Source: Candidatus Bathyarchaeia archaeon (GTDB lineage Archaea; Thermoproteota; Bathyarchaeia; Bathyarchaeales; Bathycorpusculaceae). From it: a stretch of 11,807 bases of DNA. A program made the position numbers and the translations under genes. The stretch spans positions 1 to 11,807 of the forward strand of contig JBEKKX010000053.1 of the NCBI GenBank assembly GCA_050010515.1, read 5' to 3'. The notes under the pieces were generated by a model, which saw only the letters and a list, made by a program, of their open reading frames with translations, did no database searches and was not told the origin of the DNA. Shown here in pieces: positions 1 to 11,364 of the stretch. Positions within the stretch are counted from its first letter, which is position 1. The number at the start of each line of letters is the position of its first letter.

Positions 1-411
1 CGTAGATAATGTATTGTCAAGCACAAGAAAGTAAGTTCCATTTGAGTCAAGGTTGGAACTAATTGAAGCGGTTGTGGTTTGCCCGCTTTGATAGAGCGCA
101 CCGAAGTAACTGCCAGTCGCATAATCTTCAAAGTTGCTGCTGTCAAAAATGTAAACTATAATGCCGCTGCCACTACCACCTTGTACCGTAAACGTTCCTG
201 ATACATGAATGTTTGATGCATTAGGCGGAATAATGAACTGGTAATCTACATAAGCACCAGCATCAACGTTAGCTGTTCCGTTCACTATCTGAATCGTATG
301 TGCTATGGGAGGTGGAGAAGGATTTTTTTTGCTCAAAATCACAACAGCGCCTATACTGCCAGCAACAATAAATACAATCAGAACCGACGCCAGAATTTTT
401 CTTAATTGAAT
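1..411 (-). CDS. Membrane-anchored beta-sandwich protein, emp24/gp25L/p24 (GOLD)-like; 3'-partial (runs off the window start)
   Basis: Not in the ORF track. Manual translation gives an open frame 411->1: (I/M)QLRKILASVLIVFIVAGSIGAVVILSKKNPSPPPIAHTIQIVNGTANVDAGAYVDYQFIIPPNASNIHVSGTFTVQGGSGSGIIVYIFDSSNFEDY...DSNGTYFLVLDNTLST. It has a basic N-terminus, one TM helix, a Pro linker, beta strands and a GxYxLxxDN motif typical of GOLD-like domains. In-frame TAA at 417-415, SD-like AGGGGG at 425-420, candidate start ATT at 411-409. Confidence 0.75.
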   Translation of the reverse strand, partial: MQLRKILASVLIVFIVAGSIGAVVILSKKNPSPPPIAHTIQIVNGTANVDAGAYVDYQFIIPPNASNIHVSGTFTVQGGSGSGIIVYIFDSSNFEDYATGSYFGALYQSGQTTTASISSNLDSNGTYFLVLDNTLST

Positions 412-584
412 ATCTTATTCCCCCTTTAAATTGAATCTACTTTTAATTTCGCACGCGCTGTTGGTATTCGGTTTCGTTTCATTCTTTTCATCTTTTATGT
501 TTAATTCTTAACGCTGGCATTTTTAGCATACAGTTTCTTCATGGCACACGCGTTAGTGTATGTGCGTACGTTACGTGAATGAGT

Positions 585-677
585 TTATGCTGGGATGTCA
601 GAGAAAAAGCGCGCTCCGCTTCCGTCTATTTTGGTCAAATCCAATACATACACCGTTGTGTTTGCTTCGTTCTTCAA
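585..677 (-). pseudogene. Truncated 5' remnant of a small archaeal hypothetical protein (LDLTKIDGxG motif)
   Basis: TTG start preceded by AAGGCGG, with TATA-like TTTAAAT at 714-708. It encodes MKNEANTTVYVLDLTKIDGSGARFFSDIPA*. From memory, the LDLTKIDGxG motif begins a small Bathyarchaeia protein that continues with FxCPxCG, which is absent here. Unverified. Confidence 0.35.
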
Positions 678-851
678 GCCGCCTTTGCTCGATCAAGTTT
701 TCAAACCATTTAAAGTGGAAGAGTATTAATCGATTTTCCAGATTTACACTCAAATCTTTACCAAATTCTTGCCAGATAACCAAAACTCTCCAACCCAAAA
801 ATAAACGTTCATATTTTAGGACAAACCAGCTTGCAGTGCGCGCTGGCAGAA

Positions 852-862
852 CGGTTAAATAG
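852..862 (+). promoter_or_regulatory. Putative archaeal TATA box for the dienelactone hydrolase gene
   Basis: CGGTTAAATAG about 30 nt upstream of ATG 892. The same CGGTTAAAT occurs on the minus strand upstream of the integrase remnant (8713-8705). Confidence 0.5.
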
Positions 863-891
863 TAACTCATGAGAGGTTAATATGATCTAGA

Positions 892-1701
892 ATGGAATTC
901 TCAAGTCGAACTGTAACGATCAAGTGCTTTGATGACTCTGACATGATAGCTTATATTGCCACTCCTAAAACTGGCGGCCGACAGCCTGCCATCATCATCG
1001 TCCACGAAGCCTGGGGTCTCAACGAGCAGATTAAGGGTGTTGCAAACAGATATGCTGAACAAGGTTTCGCCAGCATAGCCCCGCATCTCTTCAGCCGACA
1101 GAAAGACCTGCTGACTGAACAAGCTATCGAGAAAGCCATGATGCATATTTGGCAGATTCCCCCAGAAAAACGCAGCGACCCAAACGCAGTCCAGAGCTTA
1201 ATGGAGAATCTGCCTGAAGACGACCGGAAAATTGTCAATTATTTCTTCACGGGCCGAGAAAACGCCGAAAAAACAATGGTCGAAGACCTGCTCTGCTGCA
1301 TAAACTTCGTCAAAAACGTAGAAACTGTAGACCCTGAAAGCCTTGGAATCACAGGCTTCTGCCTCGGCGGCGGATTAGCTTACCAGCTTACAACCATGTA
1401 CCCATTCAACGCTGCGGCTCCCTTTTACGGCGCAAACCCGAAACCGCTCGAAGCAGTTGCCAAAATTAAAGGACCTATATTTGGAATCTACGCTGGGGAG
1501 GACCAAAGAATAACCAGCGGCGTTCCCGCCCTAGTAGAAAGCATGATCAAGTACAAAAAAACTTTCCAAATGAAAATCTACCAAGGGACACAACATGCCT
1601 TCTTCAACGAGAAAAGACCCTCGTACAACAAAGCCGCAGCCGAAGACGCATGGACGATGACTTTGGCATTCTTCAACAAGTATCTCAAGGCAACGCAATG
1701 A
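892..1701 (+). CDS. Dienelactone hydrolase family protein (alpha/beta hydrolase, Cys nucleophile)
   Basis: 269 aa. Motifs: PAIIIVHEAWGLN, nucleophile elbow GITGFCLGG, FYG, AGEDQ (Asp), YQGTQHAFFN (His), C-terminal AAEDAW...FF. Confidence 0.95.
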   Translation: MEFSSRTVTIKCFDDSDMIAYIATPKTGGRQPAIIIVHEAWGLNEQIKGVANRYAEQGFASIAPHLFSRQKDLLTEQAIEKAMMHIWQIPPEKRSDPNAVQSLMENLPEDDRKIVNYFFTGRENAEKTMVEDLLCCINFVKNVETVDPESLGITGFCLGGGLAYQLTTMYPFNAAAPFYGANPKPLEAVAKIKGPIFGIYAGEDQRITSGVPALVESMIKYKKTFQMKIYQGTQHAFFNEKRPSYNKAAAEDAWTMTLAFFNKYLKATQ

Positions 1702-1820
1702 GCAACACCCAAGATCGAACCGACTCAAGCCTGCTGTGGGACTGCTTCACCAACTGGTCACTGACCCTCGAGAAAATCAAAAAGCAAAAAACCTCAGCGC
1801 AAGAGATCCGTAAACAATAG
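1698..1820 (+). CDS. Putative 40-aa small protein translationally coupled to the hydrolase
   Basis: ATGA overlap with the hydrolase stop codon (1698-1701). Translation: MSNTQDRTDSSLLWDCFTNWSLTLEKIKKQKTSAQEIRKQ*. Below the ORF-track length cutoff; no recognised homology. Confidence 0.35.
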   Translation: MSNTQDRTDSSLLWDCFTNWSLTLEKIKKQKTSAQEIRKQ

Positions 1821-1838
1821 TAACCAGAAAATCAACCA

Positions 1839-1875
1839 TTACTGTTTAATCTTAATCTTACTGAAAACAGTAAGA
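1839..1875. repeat. Nested inverted repeats (TTACTG/CAGTAA)
   Basis: TCTTACTG-AAAA-CAGTAAGA is a perfect 8-bp inverted repeat (1856-1875). TTACTGTTT (1839-1847) is also the exact reverse complement of AAACAGTAA (1865-1873). Confidence 0.7.
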
Positions 1876-1886
1876 ATCTTATGGAT

Positions 1887-1926
1887 TTCAATAAGACTCA
1901 ATAAACTCCAAATAATCTCAAATCAA
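1887..1926. repeat. Four degenerate tandem 10-bp repeats next to the att site
   Basis: TTCAATAAGA / CTCAATAAAC / TCCAAATAAT / CTCAAATCAA, exact 10-nt period, ending 20 nt before the tRNA-derived repeat. Confidence 0.55.
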
Positions 1927-1945
1927 GTCGTTTTAGTGAAATTAA

Positions 1946-1962
1946 AGCGGGTCCGATGGGAT
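1946..1962 (-). repeat. attR-like direct repeat: exact copy of the tRNA-Arg 3' end
   Basis: AGCGGGTCCGATGGGAT is identical (17/17) to 8740-8756 in the same orientation. It covers the end of the T-loop through the discriminator plus 2 nt. Confidence 0.9.
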
Positions 1963-2259
1963 GCGCTTAAAATATTAAGCAAATCCATAATTAATACGCA
2001 AATATCATAGCAACTTCGAAGGACAAATGTTTGTGCAGGATTCGGGATTGCAATACTCTATTTTTCCGCGGGTTATTTGATTTTTAGCCTTAGCTTGTCC
2101 TTCCTCAACGTTTTTAGCCAGAGCCAAACATTTCGTTCCTCGATAAAAAAAACTTGACCAATGCACGAATTAAAAATAGTTTGTAAAAAAATGGCGGGAA
2201 TAGGATTTTGACGCCAATTTACCAGCAAAAGTGCGCTCTGAGAATAAGCCTGACCTGGG

Positions 2260-3474
2260 TTACCCCCGAACTGGGGGTTTAACGGTGTCCTTTGCAAACA
2301 GGAACACAACGGAGGCTGAGGCTACGCCGGAAACCCCAAACATTGTAAATATGATTTGAAAGTTGTTAGCGTAAAGGTTTAGAACCAAACCGCTTATGAT
2401 CAATCCCACAATGATGCCAATGTCCCGAAATGATGCGTTTAGAGACATCATCGTGCCTCGAAAACCTGGAACTTGTTCGAGAGCCAAACTGTTAAGACCC
2501 GTAATCGATACACTGGCAAAGCCTGCTGATACCATCCACATTGCCGCAGATGCCCACGCGTTAGGCATAAAGGCGATCAAAACTGCGAATATTCCCGAAA
2601 TTACACTTGCCACGACAGTAAGAGGCTTTCTTCCGATTCGATTAATCAATCGCCCCCCAACTATGACACCCAAAATCCCTATTACTGAAGCAATCGAATA
2701 GAAGATCGCACTCGTACTCAAAGACTCATTAAAATATAATCTGTAAAACGACACTGCATAAACAGGCACTAGGAATGAGAAGTTAGCAAGCGTCGTTCCG
2801 ACTTGGCATGCGAGTGCGGATTTGTTTGACAAGATTTGTTTGAAAGCCTTCAAATATTGAGGCTTGTTTGCAGTCTGTTCCTGCCGCGGTTTCGACGGAA
2901 GAACGAAAAAGCCAAAGAGCAAACTAACTACGGCGATTGGAAAGATAAACCACAAAAGGACAAAGCGCCATCCCGCAGCATTCGTAATTACGCTCGTCAC
3001 TTGAGGCATAACTAAGTTCGCAATAAACACACCTCCCATTGCTAACCCAATTGCCATTCCCTTTTTTTCCAAAGGCAAAAAATCTCCGATTAAGGCGAAA
3101 ACCACAATGCCAATCATTGCTGCACCTATTCCAAGAAAGAGACTGAAGAACAGAATGGACTCAAAATCTGGGGCGAAGAACGAACCTAATGCTCCGACGC
3201 CAAAAAGCGCCATGCCAAGCAGGAACAATGACTTATGTTTGAATCTGACAGTCAAAAAGCCCATGATAAAACCTACAATAAGACCCACAAAAGAGCTGAT
3301 GGTCAAAATCTGGCTTGCGGTTCCCACCGTAACTTTTAGCGTTGAGGCTACGTTTACCATAGCATTGCTTAAGAAAACCTCAAATGTGAATGTTAAGAAC
3401 ATACCCAAAAGCAAGGCGGGCACGAACAATTGCCTTTTAAGACTTTTCTTGATAGTCGGCTGTGGGGTGCTCAT
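2260..3474 (-). CDS. MFS transporter (12 TM; drug/purine/sugar efflux-like)
   Basis: 404 aa, two hydrophobic 6-TM halves joined by a central hydrophilic loop (KPRQEQTANKPQY). Motif-A-like GRLINRIGRKP in loop 8-9, EKKGMAIG in loop 4-5, EQVPGFRGTMMS in loop 10-11. Confidence 0.95.
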   Translation of the reverse strand: MSTPQPTIKKSLKRQLFVPALLLGMFLTFTFEVFLSNAMVNVASTLKVTVGTASQILTISSFVGLIVGFIMGFLTVRFKHKSLFLLGMALFGVGALGSFFAPDFESILFFSLFLGIGAAMIGIVVFALIGDFLPLEKKGMAIGLAMGGVFIANLVMPQVTSVITNAAGWRFVLLWFIFPIAVVSLLFGFFVLPSKPRQEQTANKPQYLKAFKQILSNKSALACQVGTTLANFSFLVPVYAVSFYRLYFNESLSTSAIFYSIASVIGILGVIVGGRLINRIGRKPLTVVASVISGIFAVLIAFMPNAWASAAMWMVSAGFASVSITGLNSLALEQVPGFRGTMMSLNASFRDIGIIVGLIISGLVLNLYANNFQIIFTMFGVSGVASASVVFLFAKDTVKPPVRG

Positions 3475-3580
3475 GTTTTTCTGCTATTTATCTAACTAAT
3501 ATATGAGATTATAGTTATTATGTTTGGTACTTGTCAAAACTCTTTACTAAAATTGGCGCCTGATTCTGGTGTTGATTCTT

Positions 3581-3592
3581 AAGTTTAAAATA
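3581..3592 (+). promoter_or_regulatory. Putative TATA box for the STAND gene (divergent from the MFS gene)
   Basis: AAGTTTAAAATA about 65 nt upstream of ATG 3656, in the 181-nt divergent intergenic region. Confidence 0.35.
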
Positions 3593-3655
3593 CGCAGTAG
3601 CGTCAATAATAGAGTAACTGTGGGGTTGTACTTGAGTTGGTAGGCAAAGAAAACT

Positions 3656-6600
3656 ATGAAAACTGAAATCTTAGCTGAACCCGTTTTGGTAGGCAGAGAA
3701 CGTGAAATTGAAGAACTAACGCGCCATCTGGATTCGGCTGTTCAGGGAAAAGGAACAACAGTTTTCATATCAGGAGAGGCCGGAACCGGAAAAACCAGAC
3801 TCATAAAAGAATTCCTAAACTCTGCAAAACAAAAACAAGACGTGTCAGCGCTGGCCGGGTACTGCCTCAGCAACGCTGACGTTCCATACTTCCCCTTCTT
3901 CGAAGCCTTCACCGGCTACTTCACAGAAGAAAACAAACTCGCTACCTCCACCCAGAGCCGAGATCTAACACACCCAAAAACCAGGCAAATCCGAAACGAG
4001 GAAAAGGAAATAAAACGCTGGTTCATGGGTCCAACACAAAACGAGAAAACCGGAAGACGCGAAACGTTGGCTCCTCAAGTGTGGAAAGACCAAACCTTCA
4101 TCACAGTCACACAAACCCTATCAGCCATCTCCTACGAGAAACCCATAATCCTGGTTTTAGAGGACATACACTGGGCAGACTCCGCCTCGCTCGCGCTGAT
4201 TAATTACATTAGCCGTGCCATAAACTCTAAGAGAATCCTGGTCTTAGCCACCTTTCGAAGCGAAGCACTAACGGTCGACGCCCAAGGACGCCCGCATCCG
4301 CTCGTTGAAACGCTCCGCCAAATGAAGCGGGAAGATCTCTACAAAGAAATCAAACTCCCAAACCTAGACCAAACCCATGTCTCTGCAATCGCCAAAAGCA
4401 TGCTAGGCGGAAATCTGCAGCAAGAACTCGTGGAAAAACTCACAAAAGAAAGCCAAGGAAACCCCCTCTACATCGTGGAAACACTGCGAATGCTGCATGA
4501 ACGCCACAGCCTAACTCAAGAACACGACCAATGGCGCTTATCCGCAAATGAACTAGGGATACCCGCCAAAATCAAGGACATAATCCTGCAGAGACTAAGT
4601 ATACTCATACGAAACCAAAGAAGGGTACTTGACGCTGCTTCTGTTATCGGAGAGAAGTTTGACGTTGAATTGCTCGAAGCCGTGCTCGCCCAAGACAATT
4701 TGGAGGTTCTTGAAACTTTGAATGCTATTGCGCAGTCGACCTCGATGGTTTTTTGCGAGGAAGATTCCTTCAAGTTTGACCATGCAAAGTCTCGGGATGC
4801 GATTTACGAAGAGATTCCTCTGGCCTTGAAGAAGGGTTACCACGCCAAAATTGCGGAGCGACTGGAAAGCGCCTCCAAGGGGGGCAAGCTGCCGTTCAGC
4901 GACTTAGCGTATCATTATGCTCAGGCAGGAAACAAGGAGAAAGCAGTGAAATACGCCTTAGCCGCAGGAGAAAATGCGCTAGCGAGATGGAGCAACGAGA
5001 GCGCCATCAAACACTTCACATACGTCTTGGAGAGCGTCTCCGAAAACCCAGAAAACATTGAAACGAGAAGAAAGGCCCAGGAAGGGCTGGGCGACGCTTA
5101 CTACGCCAACAGCATGTTCAAAGAAGCAATGAGAACATTTGAGGATCTGGGCAAAAATGAAATGGGGGTTGTTAAGTTGCGAGTGCTCAGAAAGGCAATG
5201 GAATCTGCCTTCCAATGCATGGATATTCCTCATTTGATGGAGCTTGTGAAGGAAGCCGAGCCGTATGCTGCCGTTGACCGTTTGGAAAGCGCAAGAGTTC
5301 TAACGCAAAGAGGAAGAGTCTACATAATGCAGAATATGGTAACGCTCGCCCCCGAAGATCGCATGCACGCGCTTGAAGATCTCAAAGCTGCTTTGCATGT
5401 TTTTGAGGAAGAGTATTCTCTTTGGGACGCCGCTTTAACCTTAGTCGGAGCAGGGACAATGCATACTTTGTCAGGCGAGCCGAAAAAGGGAATAGCTGAA
5501 TCGTTGCGTGCGATTGCGCTGTTTGAGGAACTAGGCGATTTTCACTTCCAAATGGAAGCATGCTGGGCTGCAGGCTTAGTATTTGCGGAGATGCTATTGC
5601 TTATTCATGAAGCGTTGGGCGTGCTCGCAAGGGTCATAGAAATTAATGAGAAAATGAAGATGGGTGATTATAACAGATTGGTTTATGCGCATGCTTTTTC
5701 AGCTTGGGCGTATGAGTTTATGGGTGATTGGGAAAAGGCGTTGTCTTGCAGTCTGAAAGCTCTGGACGCGTCGAAGAAGACAGATAACCTCGTAGCTCCA
5801 GGGATGGTTTACTCTAACCTTTGCAGGGAATATGTTAGACTTGGAGACTTGAAGCATGCAGAAGAATACTTTGAGAAACTCATGAAACTGCCTCTAGAAG
5901 TGCAAACGAACATTTTTACTAATGGGACATTAGCCAAGGCGGTCTTTTTTGCTGGAAAGGGCCAGTGGAAGGAGTCAACCCAGTTCTTCAAAGAACGCAT
6001 CGAATCTTTAAAGGCGAATCAAGCCGGGGGAGATGAAGTGCGTGGAAGACTGTTTTACGCTTGGGCTCTTGAAAGGGAGGGACGGGTTGAGGATGCTAAA
6101 GTTATGCTTGAAGGAGTCCAGAAGCTGTATCGAGATATGGAAAAAAGGTTTGCTCATGTAAGTTTGCAGGCGAGTTTGATGGTTCGCAGAGAGGTAACAG
6201 TTGGCGAGGAGTTTGAAATGCGTCTCGACCTCGTCAACGCCTCGAGAAAGCCGGGTTTGCTCGTCAAAGTTGAAGGCGTAATTCCTTCCGAAGGGTTCAA
6301 AGCAGCCGTTCTGCCGCCTTGGTGCAGCCTGCAAAACTGTTGCATCGAAATGAAAAACAGAGAAATCAGCGCTTTCCAAGTCGTGACCGTCAAGCTTACT
6401 TTGCAGGCAGTGAAAACTGGGGCTTTCAGTTTAAACCCGAAAATAGTATACTTAAATGAATTAGGAAAGACCAAAACAAGTAGGCTCAAACCGATAAAAA
6501 TATCTGTTGAACCTGTATCAGCAATGAACGAAGAAAGAGCACCATCGACTACATCTGCTAACTTTGGGTTCAAATCTGAAGTTACGGAGAGAGCGTTTGA

Positions 6601-6886
6601 CTTTTTGGTTAGCGCTTTTTTTGAAGATTATGTTCGCCGAAGATTGTCGCAGGAGCGGTCTGGATGGAGAACGTTAATGGATATCGTGAAACAGGGGCGG
6701 ATATCCAAATACAGTGTGTATGGTGCTTCTGGTCGTCGTGGAACAGCATTGTCCGAATTGGAACATCTAGGATTAGTTGAGGTTCGATTGTTTCAAGGCG
6801 AGAGAGGTCGGGGAGGAAAAATCCTCAAACTCAGAATTGCATACGAAAAAGAAAACGTAAAGCGCTACGTTGACCAGTCCTCTTAA
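3656..6886 (+). CDS. STAND-class ATPase (AAA_16) with TPR repeats, Ig-like beta-sandwich and C-terminal winged helix; putative transcriptional regulator
   Basis: 1076 aa. LVGRERE start motif, Walker A GEAGTGKT (3773-3796), Walker B ILVLEDIHWAD (4148-4180), GNP motif (SQGNPLY), WHD with FKFDH, LAYHY, then TPR-like helices. A beta-sandwich follows (VTVGEEFEMRLDLVN...GAFSLNPKIVY, ~6165-6510), then a C-terminal wHTH (LSELEHLGLVEVRLFQGERGRGGKILKLRI, ~6570-6886). Confidence 0.9.
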   Translation: MKTEILAEPVLVGREREIEELTRHLDSAVQGKGTTVFISGEAGTGKTRLIKEFLNSAKQKQDVSALAGYCLSNADVPYFPFFEAFTGYFTEENKLATSTQSRDLTHPKTRQIRNEEKEIKRWFMGPTQNEKTGRRETLAPQVWKDQTFITVTQTLSAISYEKPIILVLEDIHWADSASLALINYISRAINSKRILVLATFRSEALTVDAQGRPHPLVETLRQMKREDLYKEIKLPNLDQTHVSAIAKSMLGGNLQQELVEKLTKESQGNPLYIVETLRMLHERHSLTQEHDQWRLSANELGIPAKIKDIILQRLSILIRNQRRVLDAASVIGEKFDVELLEAVLAQDNLEVLETLNAIAQSTSMVFCEEDSFKFDHAKSRDAIYEEIPLALKKGYHAKIAERLESASKGGKLPFSDLAYHYAQAGNKEKAVKYALAAGENALARWSNESAIKHFTYVLESVSENPENIETRRKAQEGLGDAYYANSMFKEAMRTFEDLGKNEMGVVKLRVLRKAMESAFQCMDIPHLMELVKEAEPYAAVDRLESARVLTQRGRVYIMQNMVTLAPEDRMHALEDLKAALHVFEEEYSLWDAALTLVGAGTMHTLSGEPKKGIAESLRAIALFEELGDFHFQMEACWAAGLVFAEMLLLIHEALGVLARVIEINEKMKMGDYNRLVYAHAFSAWAYEFMGDWEKALSCSLKALDASKKTDNLVAPGMVYSNLCREYVRLGDLKHAEEYFEKLMKLPLEVQTNIFTNGTLAKAVFFAGKGQWKESTQFFKERIESLKANQAGGDEVRGRLFYAWALEREGRVEDAKVMLEGVQKLYRDMEKRFAHVSLQASLMVRREVTVGEEFEMRLDLVNASRKPGLLVKVEGVIPSEGFKAAVLPPWCSLQNCCIEMKNREISAFQVVTVKLTLQAVKTGAFSLNPKIVYLNELGKTKTSRLKPIKISVEPVSAMNEERAPSTTSANFGFKSEVTERAFDFLVSAFFEDYVRRRLSQERSGWRTLMDIVKQGRISKYSVYGASGRRGTALSELEHLGLVEVRLFQGERGRGGKILKLRIAYEKENVKRYVDQSS

Positions 6887-7354
6887 CAGCCCATTCAAGA
6901 ATTAAAGCCGACTTCGATAAATCATGGGAGTATTCTTTTCGTATTTTTATCTATAGGCCAAGTTCTGCTTTCTAAAAATAGCTATGCAGGTAATGCAGAG
7001 CAACAAAAAAGGAGGTTTCCAAGTCGTTGACGAAGCAAACCAAACAGTAGGATAAATAAAAATACTCCTTCGCCAACGAGCCACCGCAGAGAGTAACGGC
7101 ACCACATACGTCATATTATACATCTTCGCTCGATGGAGAACAATCACGGGAAACTCATCTATAACAAACTAAAAAGCTCCTTAACACGTTTTTCCAATTC
7201 GTTTTTGCTTTACCTACCAAAATAGAACCGTATTAAGATGAGGCTTCCTAACATGCATTTATGTAAAAGGATTCAGCATTGAGTTTGGGCACATTTTTCG
7301 ATGAAATATGTGCTTGAGATGTTCTTTTGGAATTTGCGCATAAAAAATCTCTTT

Positions 7355-7392
7355 TCGGAAAAATCAGGAAAAATACCCATATAATTTTCCGA
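7355..7392 (+). promoter_or_regulatory. Promoter with direct and inverted GGAAAA(A)T boxes flanking a TATA-like element
   Basis: GGAAAAAT at 7357-7364 and 7367-7374 (10-bp spacing), CATATAAT at 7378-7385, and TTTTCCGA at 7385-7392, the exact reverse complement of TCGGAAAA at 7355-7362. Lies 44-80 nt upstream of ATG 7436. Confidence 0.55.
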
Positions 7393-7435
7393 CCCCAAAA
7401 CAATTGGACAACACCGCTAAGGGGAGGTGAAAAAG

Positions 7436-8020
7436 ATGAAGATGAAAAGAATTATGATTTTAGTTCCCGTACTGGCTTTGGTGATGTTGTTTGCTACGGC
7501 CGCACCAGCTATGGCTTGCAAACCACAACATGGAACTTTCACACAAACAGGAATTGGCATGGGGACCAGCCCTGGAACCGTCTATGTGGACGCAAATAAT
7601 GTCCAGCATGCCATAGGAGCTCACGGAGAAATAACGTTCTTTGGATCGCCATGGGGAACGGCTGTAGCCACAACTACAAACAATGTTAAGCTTAGTTTGA
7701 CGAGCTTCACTGGAACAGGTCATTCAGCGGCTGTATTTAACTACAAAACAGGAGTTGCTAAGGGAGTCGCATTCCTTACATTCAATGGACTTGGCTGGTA
7801 CACCTATAATGGACCAACCATAACTGCCTATGGACTAACAATAACTCATGGACAAAAGATTTTCGGAGTACTATTTTCAGAGGTTGGAGGTGCGTTCGGC
7901 ACGAAAGGGAACCTGAGAGGACTAAACGAGATAATTGAATCGGGCACGGGCGTAAGCATAACGACACCTAACGGACTAATGGACGTCATAAGCGAAACTT
8001 ATTCGTACTGGTTCACTTAA
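7436..8020 (+). CDS. Secreted Gly/Thr-rich beta-strand hypothetical protein (194 aa)
   Basis: Start moved from GTG 7427, which is part of the SD GGAGGTGA, to ATG 7436. Signal peptide MKMKRIMILVPVLALVMLFATAAPAMA|C. Alternating beta pattern, GAFGTKGNLRG motif, no C-terminal membrane anchor. Followed by an oligo-T tract. Confidence 0.85.
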   Translation: MKMKRIMILVPVLALVMLFATAAPAMACKPQHGTFTQTGIGMGTSPGTVYVDANNVQHAIGAHGEITFFGSPWGTAVATTTNNVKLSLTSFTGTGHSAAVFNYKTGVAKGVAFLTFNGLGWYTYNGPTITAYGLTITHGQKIFGVLFSEVGGAFGTKGNLRGLNEIIESGTGVSITTPNGLMDVISETYSYWFT

Positions 8021-8034
8021 TAGGTTAGTCAAAA

Positions 8035-8061
8035 TCTTCTCTATTTTCTGTTTTTCTTTCT
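8035..8061 (+). terminator. Archaeal oligo-T terminator
   Basis: TCTTCTCTATTTTCTGTTTTTCTTTCT beginning 15 nt after the stop codon of the secreted protein. Confidence 0.6.
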
Positions 8062-8290
8062 GGAAAATTAAATAAAACGTTAACTAACTTGTGATGGAGA
8101 ACGAACGCGCTAAGCGCTAACAAATCACCGTCACGGGATTAATGGGGCACGAAGCCAACGCCTATGCCTGGAGGTGAAGATCACTTTAGTTGCCAAGCAG
8201 CCAACGATAAACCAACCACGCAGTCATCGTGGTAGTACGCTAGATTTACTCGGTGCTATCCCCATTCTTGGAGATTCGAACCTGAAGTGG

Positions 8291-8317
8291 GCTGGGTCTC
8301 TATGGAATTTGACCCCA
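8291..8317 (-). repeat. Degenerate third copy of the tRNA 3' end (relic att site)
   Basis: GCTGGGTCTCTATGGAATTTGACCCCA aligns to GC-GGGTC-CGATGGGATTTGAACCCA (8741-8765). By hand: 22 of 25 bases match, with 3 substitutions and 2 single-base insertions, same orientation. Confidence 0.5.
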
Positions 8318-8398
8318 AAAGGGGGCGGAACCATCAGCTTGAAAATCGCCGACAGTGAAAAAAAGCTGAAAAACAGCCCGCAAGCGCTTCAGCGCACA

Positions 8399-8424
8399 GG
8401 GCTGAGTCGGACCGGACTTAGCCC
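8399..8424. other. GC-rich hairpin
   Basis: GGGCTGAGTC-GGACCG-GACTTAGCCC: 10-bp stem with one G:T pair and a 6-nt loop, about 40 nt beyond the integrase remnant stop. Confidence 0.6.
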
Positions 8425-8464
8425 CAAACGGGTCTGAGTTCCTATTCTAAGTTGAAGAATAAGG

Positions 8465-8665
8465 CTATTTTTCTAAAAGCAAATCATAAAGCTCTTCTTC
8501 GCTCATCTCAAGAAGGTTACCTGGCACAATTTTCAAATCGTTACAGAAATATCCTAAACGCCTGAGATATACCTCGGCCGTTATCACCGAACCGCGGGCG
8601 ACATTATCCCGCCAACGCCTAACCGCTTTGTCATTCAAAAGAGACGAGTAATCGCTCCCGCGCAC
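8465..8665 (-). pseudogene. Truncated archaeal site-specific (tyrosine) integrase, N-terminal domain only
   Basis: From GTG 8665: MRGSDYSSLLNDKAVRRWRDNVARGSVITAEVYLRRLGYFCNDLKIVPGNLLEMSEEELYDLLLEK*. I recognise VRRW.dN.ARGS.ITA.VYLRRLG.FC as the N-terminus of archaeal integrases. It stops at 66 aa with no catalytic R-H-R-H/W-Y domain and lies directly downstream of the tRNA. The ORF-track start at 8785 falls inside the tRNA intron. Confidence 0.75.
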
Positions 8666-8739
8666 AACCTTTTTCTCCCTACAAAACCTCTTTCGGCTGA
8701 ATACATTTAACCGGTGTGGTAGACCTGAACCTAAAAGGG

Positions 8740-8756
8740 AGCGGGTCCGATGGGAT
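8740..8756 (-). repeat. attL-like direct repeat within the tRNA-Arg 3' end
   Basis: AGCGGGTCCGATGGGAT, identical to 1946-1962. Confidence 0.9.
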
Positions 8757-8840
8757 TTGAACCCATGACTTTCAGCTCTCTTCACACCCCAAAACGGGCG
8801 ATAGAAGGCTGACGCGCTATCCGTACTGCGCCACGGACCC
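8742..8840 (-). tRNA. tRNA-Arg(UCU) with intron; CCA not encoded
   Basis: GGGTCCG TG GCGC AGTACGGATA GCGC G TCAGC CT TCT A [intron] A GCTGA AAGTC ATGGG TTCAAAT CCCAT CGGACCC G. All four stems pair. Anticodon at 8805-8803; 75 nt after splicing. Confidence 0.97.
8778..8801 (-). other. 24-nt tRNA intron at canonical position 37/38
   Basis: TCGCCCGTTTTGGGGTGTGAAGAG. The central 4-bp helix is CTTC/GAAG with bulges TA|T and AG|A. The intron helix CGCCC/GGGTG is offset by one extra T (relaxed BHB / bulge-helix-loop). Confidence 0.9.
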
Positions 8841-8929: not shown

Positions 8930-9751
8930 TTATAGTTTTTGTCCGCAACGTGTGCAGTATATGGCGTCTGTTTGGTTTGGTGCTCCGCAGTGGGAGCAGT
9001 ATTTTACTTGCGCTGAAACACTTAGAACCGGCTGAACATTGACTGGTGCAATCGCTGGGGACGCTGGCGGTTTTATTCTGAAATACGCCATCGCTAGCAA
9101 CACCCAAGCAACATCCTGAACTAACCCGCCTGGAATCATGAAAGTCAGCAGGGAATTGAAGGAAAGCGAAACCGAAGACCCTATAACCGCAAATATAATT
9201 GTGAGCAAGACGCTTACTAAGGCGCCAGCTAACAACACTATAGCACCAGTTCTAAACAACAGTACCTTGGATTTGTCCGCCAACAAATTAAAGGCTCTCA
9301 CGTTAAACAATACCCAAATCAGCCCGATAACCGCAAAGACCGGAAGAACTGGCAGTATAGAACTTAGCATTGACGATGTTATTTGTGATGGAGAAGCAGG
9401 TGCTGAAGTAAAGTTTGGAATAATACTACCGATATTTGAGAGTATAAGTATAATAGTGAAGATTCCCGCTATTACACCTACAATTATAACTATGATAAGT
9501 CCGTATAACAGATTATCGAATATTCGATGGTCGCCGTAGTCTCTGGAGAAACCATACATCGCTATAAAAAATAAAAGTAAACCAACTAACCCTAAAACAC
9601 CAACAATGCCAGAGATTCCTGAAAGCGCCAAGTAAGCTACACTTGAATTTGGTAAAGCATACTGGAAAAGCTCAGAAACTTGACTCACTACACCAATTAG
9701 AATAAAACAAGCGGCAATTCCACCCATAGTCCTGTTAGACTCAATGGTCAA
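8930..9751 (-). CDS. DUF996-family membrane protein with C-terminal zinc ribbon
   Basis: 273 aa, about 6 TM helices. LGLVGLLLFFIAMYGFSRDYGDHRIFDNLLYG and LADKSKVLLFRTGA match the DUF996 pattern. Pro-rich linker, then KYCSHCGAPNQTDAIYCTRCGQKL. Confidence 0.85.
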   Translation of the reverse strand: MTIESNRTMGGIAACFILIGVVSQVSELFQYALPNSSVAYLALSGISGIVGVLGLVGLLLFFIAMYGFSRDYGDHRIFDNLLYGLIIVIIVGVIAGIFTIILILSNIGSIIPNFTSAPASPSQITSSMLSSILPVLPVFAVIGLIWVLFNVRAFNLLADKSKVLLFRTGAIVLLAGALVSVLLTIIFAVIGSSVSLSFNSLLTFMIPGGLVQDVAWVLLAMAYFRIKPPASPAIAPVNVQPVLSVSAQVKYCSHCGAPNQTDAIYCTRCGQKL

Positions 9752-10090: not shown

Positions 10091-11092
10091 TTAGTTCTTT
10101 ATGTTGCCAACTCTTAGTTTTTCCACATCAGCATCATCTGGTACTGATACAGTTACGGATTTGTTGAGGGTTTCTCTGCCAAAGTTCACTTTGACTTCGC
10201 CTGTTTTAGCATCCGAATAATAAGCCGTTAATTTGGCGGCTGTTTCAATGGCGTTTTTGGTTTTCGGTCCCTGCAAAATCGTTATCGGACCGACAATTTC
10301 GGGCAGTTCAAAATAGTATTCGCTTTGAGCTTTTCTAGCGGTTAAAAGTTTGTTTTCCGCCTCGTTTCTTCCGACAACTATCTTGTTTTTGCCCGCTCTA
10401 AAGTGCCTGCCAACTCGAAGCAAAGCGATATCAGCCATGGAAACGCGTTTCTTGTAGGTGAAGAGGTCTCGGATTTTCTTTGCATATTCTTCGCATGTTA
10501 ATAGGCATCCGCCGGCAGGACAAGGGTAATCTTTAATGCCATACTCGGTTGCAAGCTTAAACTGAGGCTTCCTTGACCGCCCTTGAATATCCATCAGCAT
10601 AGACCTGTTGACTAAACCTCTCTTTTCTACATCCGTTTCAGGCAGCAATCTGGCGGACAATGGTCTTAAAACTTTACCGTTCAATCCGGCTTCCTTTTCA
10701 ATAAGCCTCATTGCCTGATAATGCTGAGACATTGGTCGTTCATCCAAAACTTCGCCTGTAAAAATGAAAGCTGCACCTATCTCTTTTGCGTACTTCTTGG
10801 CTCTTTTCATGAGGAAAATTCTGCAGTCAATGCAGGGGTTCATGTTCCTGCCGTAACCATGCCTGGGTTTGCGAAGCATCCGTAAATAATCGTTCCCAGC
10901 AGCAACCACTTTTAAGGGTACATTTAACTGTTTAGCTGCGTCCACTGATGCGCAACCGTTTTTTTTGCAGAGGCAAAATGGACTTCTAACGTTAAAGGCA
11001 GTCACTTCGATGCCTTGCTTTAAAATCATTTCTGTAGCAAGAATGCTATCCAATCCACCTGAAAGCAAACCTAAAGCCTTAACGCGAGTCAT
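10091..11092 (-). CDS. PP-loop tRNA thiouridylase (ThiI/MnmA-like) with C-terminal NFACT-R/DUF814-like RNA-binding domain
   Basis: Likely start ATG 11092 (MTRVKALGLLSGGLDS), 333 aa. Motifs SGGLDS, NPCIDCR, TGEVLDERPMSQ, LRPLSA, GRSRKPQ, PAGGCLLT, GRHFR, IVVGRNEAEN. No N-terminal THUMP domain. Confidence 0.88.
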   Translation of the reverse strand: MTRVKALGLLSGGLDSILATEMILKQGIEVTAFNVRSPFCLCKKNGCASVDAAKQLNVPLKVVAAGNDYLRMLRKPRHGYGRNMNPCIDCRIFLMKRAKKYAKEIGAAFIFTGEVLDERPMSQHYQAMRLIEKEAGLNGKVLRPLSARLLPETDVEKRGLVNRSMLMDIQGRSRKPQFKLATEYGIKDYPCPAGGCLLTCEEYAKKIRDLFTYKKRVSMADIALLRVGRHFRAGKNKIVVGRNEAENKLLTARKAQSEYYFELPEIVGPITILQGPKTKNAIETAAKLTAYYSDAKTGEVKVNFGRETLNKSVTVSVPDDADVEKLRVGNIKN

Positions 11093-11364
11093 ATCGCCAA
11101 TAGCATTCTTCGCCCTAAATAATAATCTAACGATAAATAATAGAAGAAAAAACCTGACAAAGCAAAACAAGAATAATCTTGCTGAATCCAGAAGGTTTTT
11201 CGCATGCATCTGGGCTTTGTTAAGAGACTTGACTTATTTGCGAAGTGCAGTTTGTTCGTTATCCTTAAGCGAACTTGACTTTTTAGCGAATTTCAGTTGT
11301 CAAAAAGCTATAAAATCTTAAAACCTCTACAGAAAATGGCAAGAAAGCGCTGGAGGAGAAACAA

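Follow-up and report, generated by a model that had tools for sequence, protein, structure and literature searches.

The window analysed here, a stretch of 11,807 nucleotides, carries a gene for a 1076-residue STAND protein (P0001) followed on the same strand by a gene for a predicted secreted protein, and the promoter region between them holds a phased motif that is conserved among homologous loci. In our best reading, P0001 is probably a ligand- and ATP-gated STAND regulator that activates this adjacent promoter by multimerisation, working like MalT or AfsR while belonging to neither family. A preliminary description of the DNA had proposed a STAND sensor with a winged helix that controls the adjacent boxed promoter; its observations were confirmed in part, and this core of its interpretation is partly supported.

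Domain architecture of P0001

P0001 consists of an AAA_16 P-loop NTPase core and a TPR-like repeat region, then an Ig-like beta-sandwich, and at the C-terminus a winged helix (Table 1). Since AAA_16 covers residues 11-196 (E 7e-26), there is no space for an N-terminal effector, in agreement with the preliminary description, and a Pfam search of P0001 found neither an N-terminal nor any other enzymatic effector domain. Residues 446-827 match TPR_12, TPR_2, TPR_19, TPR_7 and other Pfam families, while TPR_MalT scores 23 bits, below the Pfam cut-off of 45. The Ig-like domain matches TRAP-beta and complement MG domains in Foldseek (E 6e-7), reaches a Z of about 10 in VIA, and has a weak BatD/DUF11-like match in Pfam (E 0.0038). 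There are 178 homologues with the same C-terminus, and those with a named source all belong to Bathyarchaeia/Bathyarchaeota or Thermoproteota. The homologous STAND ORFs are often fragmented, which gene decay or assembly error could explain. The DNA of the window itself comes from an uncultured soil archaeon of the Bathyarchaeia.

Table 1. Coordinates of the features of the locus
Feature	Position (nt)	Strand	Basis or remark
P0001 gene, STAND-TPR-Ig-winged-helix protein, 1076 aa	3656..6886	+	ORF; Pfam AAA_16 and TPR families
AAA_16 P-loop NTPase core, residues 11-196	3686..4243	+	Pfam PF13191, E 7.2e-26
Walker A GEAGTGKT, residues 40-47	3773-3796	+	Motif positions
Walker B ILVLEDIHWAD, residues 165-175	4148-4180	+	Motif positions
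TPR-like repeat region, presumed sensor, ~residues 425-830	4928..6145	+	Pfam TPR families
Ig-like beta-sandwich, residues 841-952	6176..6511	+	AF2 model, pLDDT 90-94
C-terminal winged-helix domain, residues 975-1076	6578..6883	+	AF2 topology H-H-H-H-beta-hairpin-H
Invariant GWR of winged helix, residues 1003-1005		+	
Wing tip GERGRGG of winged helix, residues 1048-1054	6797-6817	+	
Extra non-repeated DNA, ~380 nt, stop codon to conserved intergenic region	6887..7268	.	By-eye comparison
Upstream direct box GGAAAAAT	7357..7364	+	Sequence; exactly 10 nt ahead of next copy
Conserved 26-nt predicted operator/promoter motif GGAAAAATACCCATATAATTTTCCGA	7367..7392	+	EM motif, PWM
Box 2, GGAAAAAT	7367-7374	+	Within 26-nt motif
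TATA-like stretch	7379-7388	+	Within 26-nt motif
Inverted half-site AATTTTCC	7383-7390	+	Within 26-nt motif
Shine-Dalgarno GGAGGTG	7423..7429	+	6 nt ahead of ATG; same SD precedes downstream genes in other loci
Downstream ("cargo") gene, 194-aa predicted secreted DUF3224-like beta-barrel protein	7436..8020	+	Translation, AF2
T-runs TTTT, TTTTT, TTT, plausible archaeal oligo-T terminator	8044..8059	+	24-39 nt past stop; sequence only
tRNA-Arg(TCT), intron-bearing	8741..8840	-	Rfam tRNA 59 bits; aragorn -i; edge of conserved neighbourhood

A STAND ATPase joined to TPR repeats is also the body plan of the Avs proteins. P0001 might share more than this plan with them and be an antiviral STAND protein in which a viral protein is sensed by the TPR region and the effector is either the winged helix or the product of the neighbouring gene, a reading that we consider very improbable. 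It would suit a patchy, multi-copy distribution that resembles defence islands, and there are weak matches at the P-loop level to BrxD and SngB (E 3e-4) and to the NCBIfam model of Avs4 (E 0.006), but PADLOC found no match beyond the P-loop and P0001 carries no enzymatic effector. Moreover, the products of the neighbouring genes are esterases, propellers and small barrels destined for export, not intracellular nucleases, proteases or pore-formers, and a conserved promoter motif would have no role in such a system.

The last 236 residues of P0001 were modelled by AF2 (pLDDT 87) as a beta-sandwich, a disordered linker, and then a helix-turn-helix with a beta-hairpin wing; in this model the C-terminal domain folds as a winged helix, as the preliminary description had proposed. 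When model residues 121-236 were compared in VIA, with ranges differing between matches, the best non-Ig matches were the winged helices of MarR-family regulators (6pco Z 8.8, 3cjn 8.6, 2nnn 8.6, 7wze 8.3), ORC2, RPC62 and TFE-alpha, at Z 8.2-8.8, values that are middling and lie in a range that, by the tool's caution, may mean merely a common arrangement. Foldseek of the C-terminal model against the PDB listed Ig-like or unrelated matches only and no winged helix, and no Pfam model matches the domain; its sequence profile matches the winged helix of Cdc6 (2qby_B, E 0.039). Among 1.84 billion proteins the domain has 448 cluster representatives, and further fusions join it to a TPR module, to a cyclase together with TPR, to a cNMP-binding or to a nitroreductase module. 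In two proteins of about 270 residues (L117 and L118) a cNMP-binding domain directly precedes the winged helix, and P0240 has the reverse order.

A conserved motif in the downstream promoter

The boxed promoter (7357-7390), the strong Shine-Dalgarno sequence (7423-7429) and the signal-peptide gene starting at ATG 7436 are all present behind P0001 as previously described. A profile search with the winged helix retrieved 51 Bathyarchaeia loci from 38 assemblies, and EM analysis of these loci and the window gave a 26-nt motif with the consensus RnAAAAAT-N8-TAWTTTTCc. The motif, and with it the A-rich boxes, is kept in 51 of 53 intergenic regions 3' of the winged-helix gene, although the PWM was trained on the very loci in which the motif was counted, and, the loci being related by descent, both this count and the Fisher test suggest more independent cases than there are. 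In the two regions that lack it, the convergent neighbour is just 20-26 nt off. The site in the window is the top PWM match in the 2.38-Mb genome (score 20.5), where only two other matches reach at least 14, and a Markov simulation of the same size gave 0 matches of at least 14. Given that the motif is found again between the genes of the homologous loci and has hardly another copy in the genome, the boxes of the window are far beyond chance.

Across the homologous loci (539 kb), plus-strand matches of at least 12 lie directly behind winged-helix genes, with the exceptions of L073:720 and L082:8329, both of which precede further signal-peptide genes. When we scanned 14 independent loci with a recognisable winged helix, 13 had a same-strand motif 3' of it, and six of the motif instances were sequences absent from the training set; at locus G025 the gene is present and the adjacent motif is absent. 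A scan of the window for sigma-70 promoters and hairpin terminators turned up nothing of relevance, which is what one would expect in an archaeon.

The end of the motif is mostly 25-50 nt from the next start codon. Of 55 sites, 13 have an exact AAAAAT at offset -10 and 3 have one at -20; elsewhere it occurs once each at 11, 19 and 26. Many of the sites come close to perfect palindromes, with scores on either strand, and the right arm TAWTTTT is the sole TATA-like stretch, about 45-55 nt ahead of the start codon. An inverted repeat 25-50 nt before a start codon could act as RNA, as a hairpin in the 5' leader or a protein-binding site that governs how the downstream mRNA is translated or how stable it is. 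We regard this as highly unlikely, as the arms would pair by A-U alone, direct copies at 10-nt phasing suit B-DNA rather than a hairpin, and the arms show no covariation, which follows from both arms being invariant.

A weightier alternative is that P0001 binds this very site as a repressor or dual regulator: winged helices at rest would sit on the inverted repeat, cover the TATA-like element and block TBP/TFB, and ligand and ATP would release or rearrange them and de-repress the gene. Archaeal regulators that overlap TATA/BRE mostly repress, and here the TAWTTTT arm overlaps the only TATA-like stretch; the palindromic form of many sites is as found with dimeric MarR-type repressors, and the nearest fold matches of the winged helix are MarR-family proteins. 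On the other side, the additional upstream copies phased at 10 nt fit cooperative recruitment better than plain occlusion, and MalT is an activator. AfsR, as presented in the available part of the source, is an activator as well and works from a box overlapping a core promoter element (PMC10936776). We hold repression or dual control to be unlikely, yet the most serious of the alternatives, and if binding is real, activation is the fairly probable outcome.

Downstream genes and genomic neighbourhood

The gene behind the motif looks secreted or membrane-anchored in 40 of 54 cases, on the same strand, versus 66 of 388 among the remaining ORFs of these loci (odds ratio 13.9), as called by a crude in-house heuristic signal-peptide rule. 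This agrees with the association with signal-peptide genes expected from the preliminary description. The 14 genes that fail the rule include two for cytoplasmic-looking SRPBCC proteins. The downstream genes fall into 24 sequence clusters, and those of the relatives encode esterases, PQQ-type beta-propellers, beta-helix proteins and collagen-repeat anchored proteins.

In the window, the downstream protein begins with MKMKRIMILVPVLALVMLFATAAPAMA, a typical signal peptide (residues 1-27), followed by Cys28; P24, A27 and C28 are invariant in the family (alignment A3). An upstream GTG at 7427 was rejected as the start codon in favour of the ATG. After the signal peptide, AF2 gives an all-beta barrel (pLDDT 89) that matches 2q03 (VIA Z 14.1, rmsd 2.1, 125 residues) and 2ooj (Z 12.4). 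Among the matches that follow, at Z of about 10, are barrels of the dirigent, allene-oxide-cyclase and Diels-Alderase types, and most of these have small hydrophobic molecules as ligands. Like the DUF3224 proteins 2Q03 and 2OOJ, the protein is modelled as a closed antiparallel beta-barrel, but it differs from them in its signal peptide and invariant Cys at +1, and no Pfam model matches it by sequence. Only seven sequence clusters of the family were found, the single one with a named source being from Bathyarchaeia, and members lie 3' of the winged-helix gene in nine loci, including the window. The T-runs behind the gene make the oligo-T terminator of the preliminary description plausible.

The tRNA island of that description comes down to a single intron-bearing tRNA-Arg(TCT) on the minus strand. 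In two related genomes (G003 and G013) the same tRNA adjoins a ThiI-like gene, and beyond the tRNA window positions 1-8700 are unmatched save for two short low-identity matches. No integrase, transposase or recombinase gene was found in the window, and the features that might suit the proposed mobility of the module are a patchy distribution of STAND/winged-helix modules, multiple and tandem copies, and the synteny break at the tRNA. The ~380 nt of extra DNA behind P0001 is missing from the closest homologous locus (L034) in a by-eye intergenic comparison, and blastn found no second copy in the genome and the homologous loci searched.

These features also bear on whether the motif is the target of the winged helix at all. 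It could instead serve some other factor, for example a dedicated TBP/TFB paralogue or a recombinase, as a specialised promoter or as the boundary of a cassette, and would then accompany the gene only because the two genes and the DNA between them are passed on or duplicated together. Co-inheritance could account for the constant adjacency of gene and motif, and tandem modules, patchy distribution and the position next to a tRNA, where synteny breaks off, would suit a cassette. Motif subtypes track winged-helix subfamilies, and shared ancestry alone would yield the same. However, the motif stays while the downstream gene changes, which is expected of a regulator-operator pair and not required of a cassette, and the window lacks a recombinase gene. 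A paralogue in the same genome (contig C8) has the same AAA_16-TPR-Ig body with a KaiC-like C-terminus, and no motif match of at least 10 lies nearby. Furthermore, at two metagenome loci genes that join the winged helix to an unrelated N-terminal part, a cNMP-binding domain, have motif matches of 12.9 and 14.9 ahead of the neighbouring gene, once on the opposite strand ahead of a convergent gene; a third, fragmentary locus of this type (L119) has no match of at least 8. We consider another factor improbable.

Comparison with known systems and proposed mechanism

MalT of Escherichia coli combines a STAND ATPase with a TPR-like sensor and, at its C-terminus, a DNA-binding output, and its promoters carry short direct and inverted boxes. 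P0001 shares the effector-free N-terminal ATPase, the TPR-like sensor, a C-terminal output of DNA-binding type and the repeated direct and inverted boxes, so far as the available parts of the sources describe MalT/LAL regulators, with their AAA_16-type ATPase, TPR-like sensor and DNA-binding output (PMC6468293, PMC4381067). The MalT-like system of the preliminary description stands in this respect, but we rejected membership in the MalT/LAL group of large ATP-binding LuxR-family regulators, since Pfam found no LuxR-type HTH in P0001. In place of the LuxR/GerE HTH it has an Ig-preceded winged helix that lacks a Pfam model, its TPR_MalT match is below the cut-off, its host uses the archaeal TBP/TFB machinery, and its predicted target, as far as visible here, is one gene, the adjacent one, and not a regulon.

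In the available part of its source, AfsR of Streptomyces is a winged-helix, NOD and TPR activator that binds two 11-bp direct repeats overlapping the -35 element (PMC10936776). P0001 resembles AfsR and the large SARPs in this set of domains and in direct boxes that recur at one helical turn and extend into a core promoter element, but AfsR has an OmpR-type winged helix and BTAD at the N-terminus, whereas P0001 has its ATPase there and a MarR/Cdc6-like winged helix at the C-terminus. The repeat period is 10 nt here and 11 in AfsR, and the inverted copy is additional here. The preliminary description knew of no characterised archaeal example; the structure of an archaeal STAND-TPR protein, PH0952 of Pyrococcus horikoshii, has been solved (PDB 6MFV), yet within the available text it is a predicted or putative transcription factor (PMC6468293). 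Like P0001 it joins an archaeal STAND ATPase to a TPR sensor, but its architecture differs, and that text names no operator or target for it, whereas both are predicted here. L117 and L118 have the domain order of CRP, as in CRP/FNR one-component regulators, but their winged helix belongs to the GWR...GERGRGG family, which has no Pfam match, and P0001 has no cNMP-binding domain.

We suggest that P0001 is a cytoplasmic, one-component-style STAND signal transducer, in which the AAA_16 core would serve nucleotide binding and oligomerisation, the TPR region sensing, the Ig-like domain as spacer and the winged helix as DNA-binding output. The winged helix would directly contact A-tract half-sites of the form G/R-n-AAAAAT in the next gene's promoter, arranged as one to three direct copies, which would lie on one face of the helix because of their 10-nt spacing, and one inverted copy with its T-rich arm overlapping the TATA-like stretch. 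On the model of MalT and other STAND proteins, a ligand from inside the cell, bound to the TPR region, may together with ATP open the core and lead to multimerisation, and the multimer would place several winged helices on the phased boxes, so that the adjacent gene is transcribed. In the window the gene switched in this way would be that of the secreted DUF3224-like beta-barrel protein. Because a near-invariant motif stands in the promoter of the next gene, usually one for a secreted protein, in dozens of relatives, the locus has the looks of a widespread and hitherto undescribed archaeal gene switch for exported proteins.

Domain architecture of the STAND protein and its homologues

Pfam assigned an AAA_16 domain to residues 11-196 of the 1076-aa protein P0001 (E 7e-26, 92 bits against a cut-off of 32.6), in which the Walker A motif GEAGTGKT lies at 40-47 and the Walker B motif ILVLEDIHWAD at 165-175. 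Since this domain already begins at residue 11, the view in the preliminary description that P0001 carries no N-terminal effector was borne out. TPR_12 (34.8 bits, cut-off 30.1) and several further TPR families were found over residues 446-827. Judged by its sequence, P0001 is a STAND (AAA_16) protein, with a P-loop core and a presumed repeat sensor C-terminal to it. When the full-length protein was compared with PDB sequences using phmmer (E ≤0.01), only TPR proteins were matched. For the piece that precedes the last 106 residues, Pfam gave only a weak BatD/DUF11-like match, and the AlphaFold2 model shows a beta-sandwich at residues 841-952 (VIA Z about 10).

The model covers the last 236 residues and was built from 54 aligned sequences (53 homologues) with a mean pLDDT of 87. 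In it, the beta-sandwich is followed by a disordered linker and a long helix, after which come a three-helix unit, a beta-hairpin that has the invariant GERGRGG as its turn, and the last helix. The last 106 residues match no Pfam family, even with the E limit relaxed to 10. Foldseek against the PDB listed Ig-like or unrelated structures only, with TRAP-beta and complement MG domains on top, and the winged helix surfaced only in the exhaustive VIA search. In that search, model residues 121-236 (ranges vary by row) matched MarR-family proteins at Z 8.3-8.8 with 73-83 residues aligned, and the winged helices of RPC62, ORC2 and TFE-alpha at Z 8.2-8.3. A 13-sequence profile of the domain matched the archaeal Cdc6 winged helix among PDB sequences (E 0.039), such marginal Cdc6 matches being all that phmmer and profile searches with the C-terminal domain returned. 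ESM Atlas matches to residues 965-1076 scored at most 0.83 and, going by their names, include several winged-helix families; they are leads only. Although the Z values are middling, all non-Ig matches are winged helices, and we accept a predicted winged-helix fold with a hairpin wing, in agreement with the domain assigned earlier to this C-terminus. The two Arg residues of the invariant wing would be well placed for the narrow minor groove of an A-tract.

The C-terminal 236 residues of P0001 retrieved 178 proteins, and the sources that name these homologues give Candidatus Bathyarchaeia or Bathyarchaeota. Among the 120 matches listed, most are about 1030-1090 aa long and contain AAA_16 and TPR, while a second class of about 1200 aa (1190-1220) has the same Ig and winged-helix tail with no AAA_16 in Pfam. 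Many of the homologous STAND ORFs are split, through gene decay or assembly error. The winged-helix profile alone gave 448 cluster representatives (50% identity) in 1.84 billion proteins, in which the domain is nearly always C-terminal and is fused to TPR alone, to an adenylate/guanylate cyclase with TPR, to a cNMP-binding domain or to a nitroreductase-like domain. Because it is fused to such varied sensors, the winged helix behaves as the output domain of one-component regulators. Regulators with a swapped sensor, the class of about 1200 aa included, are also found among the retrieved proteins (P0114, P0058, P0070, P0110 and P0118); in P0114, an alpha/beta-hydrolase domain takes the place of the TPR region.

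The genome of the window itself encodes a paralogue on contig C8 (G000:C8:41807-44662; locus L002, ORF 1480-5049) with 55% identity over residues 4-955. It keeps the AAA_16-TPR-Ig body and has a KaiC/RecA-like ATPase domain at the C-terminus in place of the winged helix, which indicates that the output module of the STAND scaffold is exchangeable. From ORF translations, its neighbours are a methenyl-H4MPT cyclohydrolase-like gene and a small Cys-rich gene.

A conserved motif ahead of the downstream gene

In the window, GGAAAAAT at 7357-7364 is repeated at 7367-7374, and the inverted AATTTTCC lies at 7383-7390. GGAGGTG at 7423-7429 precedes ATG 7436, which is likely the start of the small ORF, and T-runs are present 3' of its stop codon. 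The boxed promoter and strong SD described earlier for the secreted-protein gene are therefore found in the sequence. One genome per species was scanned, which yielded 51 loci in 38 assemblies. Going by crude ORF calls, the winged-helix gene usually has its next neighbour on the same strand at a distance of about 200 nt, and this neighbour has a signal-peptide-like start. A motif search upstream of these neighbours, as proposed with the preliminary description, did yield one A-rich boxed motif: an EM search of 53 downstream intergenic regions converged on a single 26-nt motif, R-n-AAAAAT-r-n-y-T-A-n-n-T-A-W-TTTT-C-c, found in 51 of them with scores of 11.8-23.7. In the remaining two (L048 and L075), a convergent neighbour lies just 20-26 nt away. 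A loose IUPAC pattern tried on 41 relatives was too degenerate: A/T-rich chance matches turned up in genomes with the gene and in genomes lacking it, so that the pattern speaks neither for nor against the link.

When the PWM was run over both strands of the own genome, 21 matches scored at least 10 and three at least 14, the window site, with 20.5, ranking first. A simulated genome of the same length (first-order Markov) gave 12 and none, respectively. Across 539 kb of homologous loci, plus-strand matches of at least 12 lie directly behind winged-helix genes; the two exceptions, L073:720 and L082:8329, are located ahead of further signal-peptide genes. The minus-strand matches are these palindromic sites again, read in reverse, plus one weak extra. 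The pattern across these sequences argues that the motif is not a general promoter element. No match of at least 10 was found near the KaiC-tailed paralogue on C8 in the own-genome scan. In a later class-wide search, 14 loci had a recognisable winged helix, and in 13 of them the motif was found downstream on the same strand; the miss was in genome G025, and six instances (loci L099, L105, L107, L108, L111 and L114) were absent from the training set.

A metagenome scan added three sensor-fused loci. In two of them, L117 and L118, the winged helix comes after a cNMP-binding domain. A match of 12.9 is located 247 nt past the stop in L117, before an alpha/beta-hydrolase-like ORF (named by eye), and one of 14.9 lies on the opposite strand in L118, before a convergent ORF that has a hydrophobic segment at its N-terminus. 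From the own-genome rate, we estimate the chance of such a match in about 2 kb as roughly one in several hundred. The fragmentary L119 has no match of at least 8. When recognition-helix residues and motif flanks were compared by eye, any coevolution was inseparable from shared descent.

The second-best own-genome site, G000:C54:9254-9279, is a near-perfect palindrome (16.6 and 13.2 on its two strands) located between a P-type ATPase gene, about 220 nt off, and an adjoining TnpB-like ORF, both named by eye. Its geometry is unlike that of the window-type sites, and it may be either another target site or the end of an IS. C7:25274, which ranks third, falls within a coding region and is probably a chance match.

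The distance from the end of the motif to the start codon is mostly 25-50 nt. Among 55 sites, 13 have an exact further copy of AAAAAT at 10 nt upstream and three (seven with one mismatch) at 20 nt, and such copies occur only once each at offsets of 11, 19 and 26. Based on this phasing, the predicted operator has one, two or three direct boxes, all on one face of the helix, and in addition an inverted arm. The right arm of the site and the sole TATA-like stretch overlap. In 45 own-genome upstream regions passing the filter, no A/T-rich hexamer stood out as a promoter consensus, so the TATA assignment rests on position and composition. A sigma-70 and hairpin-terminator scan was set aside as uninformative for an archaeon.

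Exported genes and the setting of the module

An ORF of at least 60 aa lies within 135 nt of 54 of the 55 motif sites. By our own crude signal-peptide/TM heuristic, 40 of these 54 ORFs pass, compared with 66 of the 388 other ORFs in the same loci (odds ratio 13.9; Fisher p 5e-17, which overstates the evidence because the loci are related), and the enrichment of signal-peptide neighbours suggested earlier was thus recovered. On inspection, several of the 14 ORFs that fail look like frameshifted or mis-started signal-peptide genes. The 54 proteins form 24 sequence clusters: 12 proteins are collagen-repeat proteins with an N-terminal anchor, nine belong to the barrel family of the window and four are alpha/beta-hydrolases, and the rest include two PQQ-type propellers, two NosD/beta-helix proteins and two SRPBCC proteins without a signal peptide. 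The commonest family (loci L054, L056, L058, L062, L066, L067, L069 and L082) is 546-569 aa long and has collagen-like G-X-Y repeats after a membrane anchor at the N-terminus. Three members were scanned and match Pfam Collagen (E about 1e-8); the remainder of the protein has no convincing Pfam match.

The product of the small ORF is predicted to be secreted, as first described, with a classic signal peptide ending in AMA just before C. Its AlphaFold model is a closed beta-barrel (pLDDT 89). The nearest solved barrels in VIA are the DUF3224 proteins 2q03 (Z 14.1) and 2ooj (Z 12.4), and the next rows, at Z about 10, include dirigent, allene-oxide-cyclase and Diels-Alderase barrels. No Pfam family, PF11528 included, matched at E ≤0.01, and Foldseek with the model returned nothing at E ≤0.001; as modelled, the likeness to DUF3224 is at the level of the fold only. 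The barrel family comprises seven sequence clusters in a collection of 5.8 billion protein clusters. Its members have an invariant Cys right after the predicted A-x-A cleavage site (window 7436-7519), and an A-C pattern of this kind also occurs in unrelated downstream genes, among loci L034, L065, L070, L073 and L033. In Bathyarchaeia, this lipobox-like Cys may be the sign of a lipid anchor or of covalent attachment.

The window is the entire 11.8-kb contig C53 of a 2.38-Mb genome that is 98.5% complete.

Features located in the window (nucleotide positions)
Feature	Position	Strand	Source
Dienelactone hydrolase	892-1701		
MFS transporter	2260-3474	minus	
1076-aa ORF (P0001)	3656-6886	plus	
Small ORF	7436-8020	plus	
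tRNA-Arg(TCT)	8741-8840	minus	Rfam; ARAGORN with introns allowed
DUF996/zinc-ribbon protein	8930-9751	minus	
ThiI-like protein	10091-11209	minus	

Rfam and ARAGORN found a single tRNA gene, so the "tRNA island" of the preliminary description did not hold. ARAGORN detected no tRNA in default mode and the same single one as Rfam when introns were allowed. This gene is 100 nt long with an intron, i(40,24); the tRNA-Arg(TCT) genes beside a ThiI-like gene in two congeners (L085 and L086) are 76-78 nt long and have none.

About 380 nt of unique DNA (6887-7268) separates the regulator stop codon from the conserved promoter region, and only about 100 nt lie between stop and promoter in the closest homologous locus, L034. 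The extra DNA has no second copy in the own genome and contains no convincing ORF; a degenerate box-like stretch, CTAAAAATAGCTATG, is located in it near 6968.

The winged-helix gene is present in eight of 41 related genomes, the own one included, and in six of 24 other sampled genomes of the genus, often in two or three copies per genome that are sometimes in tandem. Two modules of regulator and downstream gene stand head to tail within 5-6 kb in L034, L062 and L065 (and G012:C10). Each module has a motif copy to itself, and this suggests that the entire unit was duplicated locally. The congeners G003 and G013, which are without the module, have tRNA-Arg(TCT) beside the ThiI-like gene as in the window, and their DNA past the tRNA does not match window 1-8700 save for two short low-identity matches. 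The module region is a variable region bordering a tRNA gene. We considered a mobile element, as had been proposed. Pfam finds no integrase or transposase gene in the window and the 380 nt of extra DNA are not repeated; because there is no recombinase gene, the module is not a demonstrated mobile element. Motif modules also occur on contigs of 1.4-12 kb in MAGs labelled Heimdallarchaeota, Thermoplasmatota, Acidoferrum and Baldrarchaeota (L063, L071, L073 and L074). Since these contigs are short, mis-binned Bathyarchaeia DNA seems as likely as gene transfer.

Comparison with known systems and implications

The architecture of P0001, its fold, the pairing of its gene with a specific, phased predicted operator and the bias towards exported genes are most simply accounted for by a STAND-class signal-transducing transcription regulator acting on the neighbouring promoter. 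In archaea, a regulator site over the TATA element often means repression; both STAND transcription factors used for comparison, MalT and AfsR, activate. If binding is real, activation of the adjacent gene would, by analogy, be the rather probable outcome. By analogy with MalT and with other STAND proteins (PMC6468293, PMC4381067), a ligand on the TPR sensor and ADP/ATP exchange would open the core and lead to multimerisation. The multimer would cluster winged helices on the phased boxes.

MalT/LAL regulators activate promoters with arrays of short direct and inverted boxes; in the window, boxes are present, conserved and phased, and their binding and activation by P0001 are predicted. The label MalT-like, given in the preliminary description, would hold for the working principle and fails for MalT/LAL membership: P0001 has no GerE/LuxR match in Pfam at E ≤0.01, its C-terminus being instead a predicted winged helix with a hairpin wing. 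For PF17874 TPR_MalT, the score is 23.1 bits and the cut-off 45. The activator AfsR, which has the same three kinds of modules as P0001 in a different order, acts from two 11-bp repeats that overlap the -35 element (PMC10936776). Pfam finds neither Trans_reg_C nor BTAD in P0001, whereas an N-terminal OmpR-type winged helix with BTAD is the SARP/AfsR hallmark. P0001 would work like MalT/LAL and AfsR, yet it fails a defining feature of each. The archaeal STAND protein PH0952, a predicted transcription factor, has an N-terminal ArsR-like domain, whereas P0001 has no domain before AAA_16, and phmmer of P0001 against PDB sequences (E ≤0.01) did not match PH0952. An antiviral STAND protein of the Avs type was also considered and rejected: Pfam finds no effector domain, PADLOC gave P-loop-level matches only (E 3e-4), and NCBIfam Avs4 scored 13.7 bits against a cut-off of 1500. 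We place P0001 with the STAND transcription factors, as a variant of these.

A bolder reading, which we hold to be possible but doubtful, is a plug-and-play regulatory cassette peculiar to Bathyarchaeia, in which a constant pair of winged helix and operator is combined with swapped sensors and exported genes in mobile units. A dedicated GWR...GERGRGG winged-helix family would read the A-tract boxes, and, since the TATA-like stretch and the last box overlap, the regulator would supply TBP/TFB recognition, or stand in for it, at a crippled promoter, as an archaeal counterpart of the "sigma adaptation" of AfsR. The swapped sensors would be AAA_16-TPR, AAA_16 with alpha/beta-hydrolase, cNMP-binding and cyclase-TPR, the exported genes would be those of the 24 clusters, and the units would duplicate in tandem and move between genomes.

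Bathyarchaeia abound in soils, peat and sediments and are nearly all uncultured, and to our knowledge almost nothing is known of their gene regulation. A literature search covering articles without their supplements gave no account of the protein family, its winged-helix domain or the motif. Taking the STAND-class regulator as the preferred reading, a large family (448 cluster representatives) appears from sequence to be tied to a precise predicted operator and to an exported class of targets. Among archaeal STAND-class regulators, P0001 would be the first for which operator and target are both predicted. It would lend itself to studies of a multimerising ATPase at promoters that depend on TBP/TFB, and control of the exoproteome in an uncultured archaeon can be put to the test using a purified domain and a 60-bp probe. 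The genes flagged by the motif, including esterases, PQQ-type propellers and DUF3224/dirigent-like barrels, are candidates for substrate-induced extracellular functions. If the cassette reading were true, the system would set which extracellular enzymes and binding proteins the archaea of sediment and peat deploy in response to intracellular metabolites.
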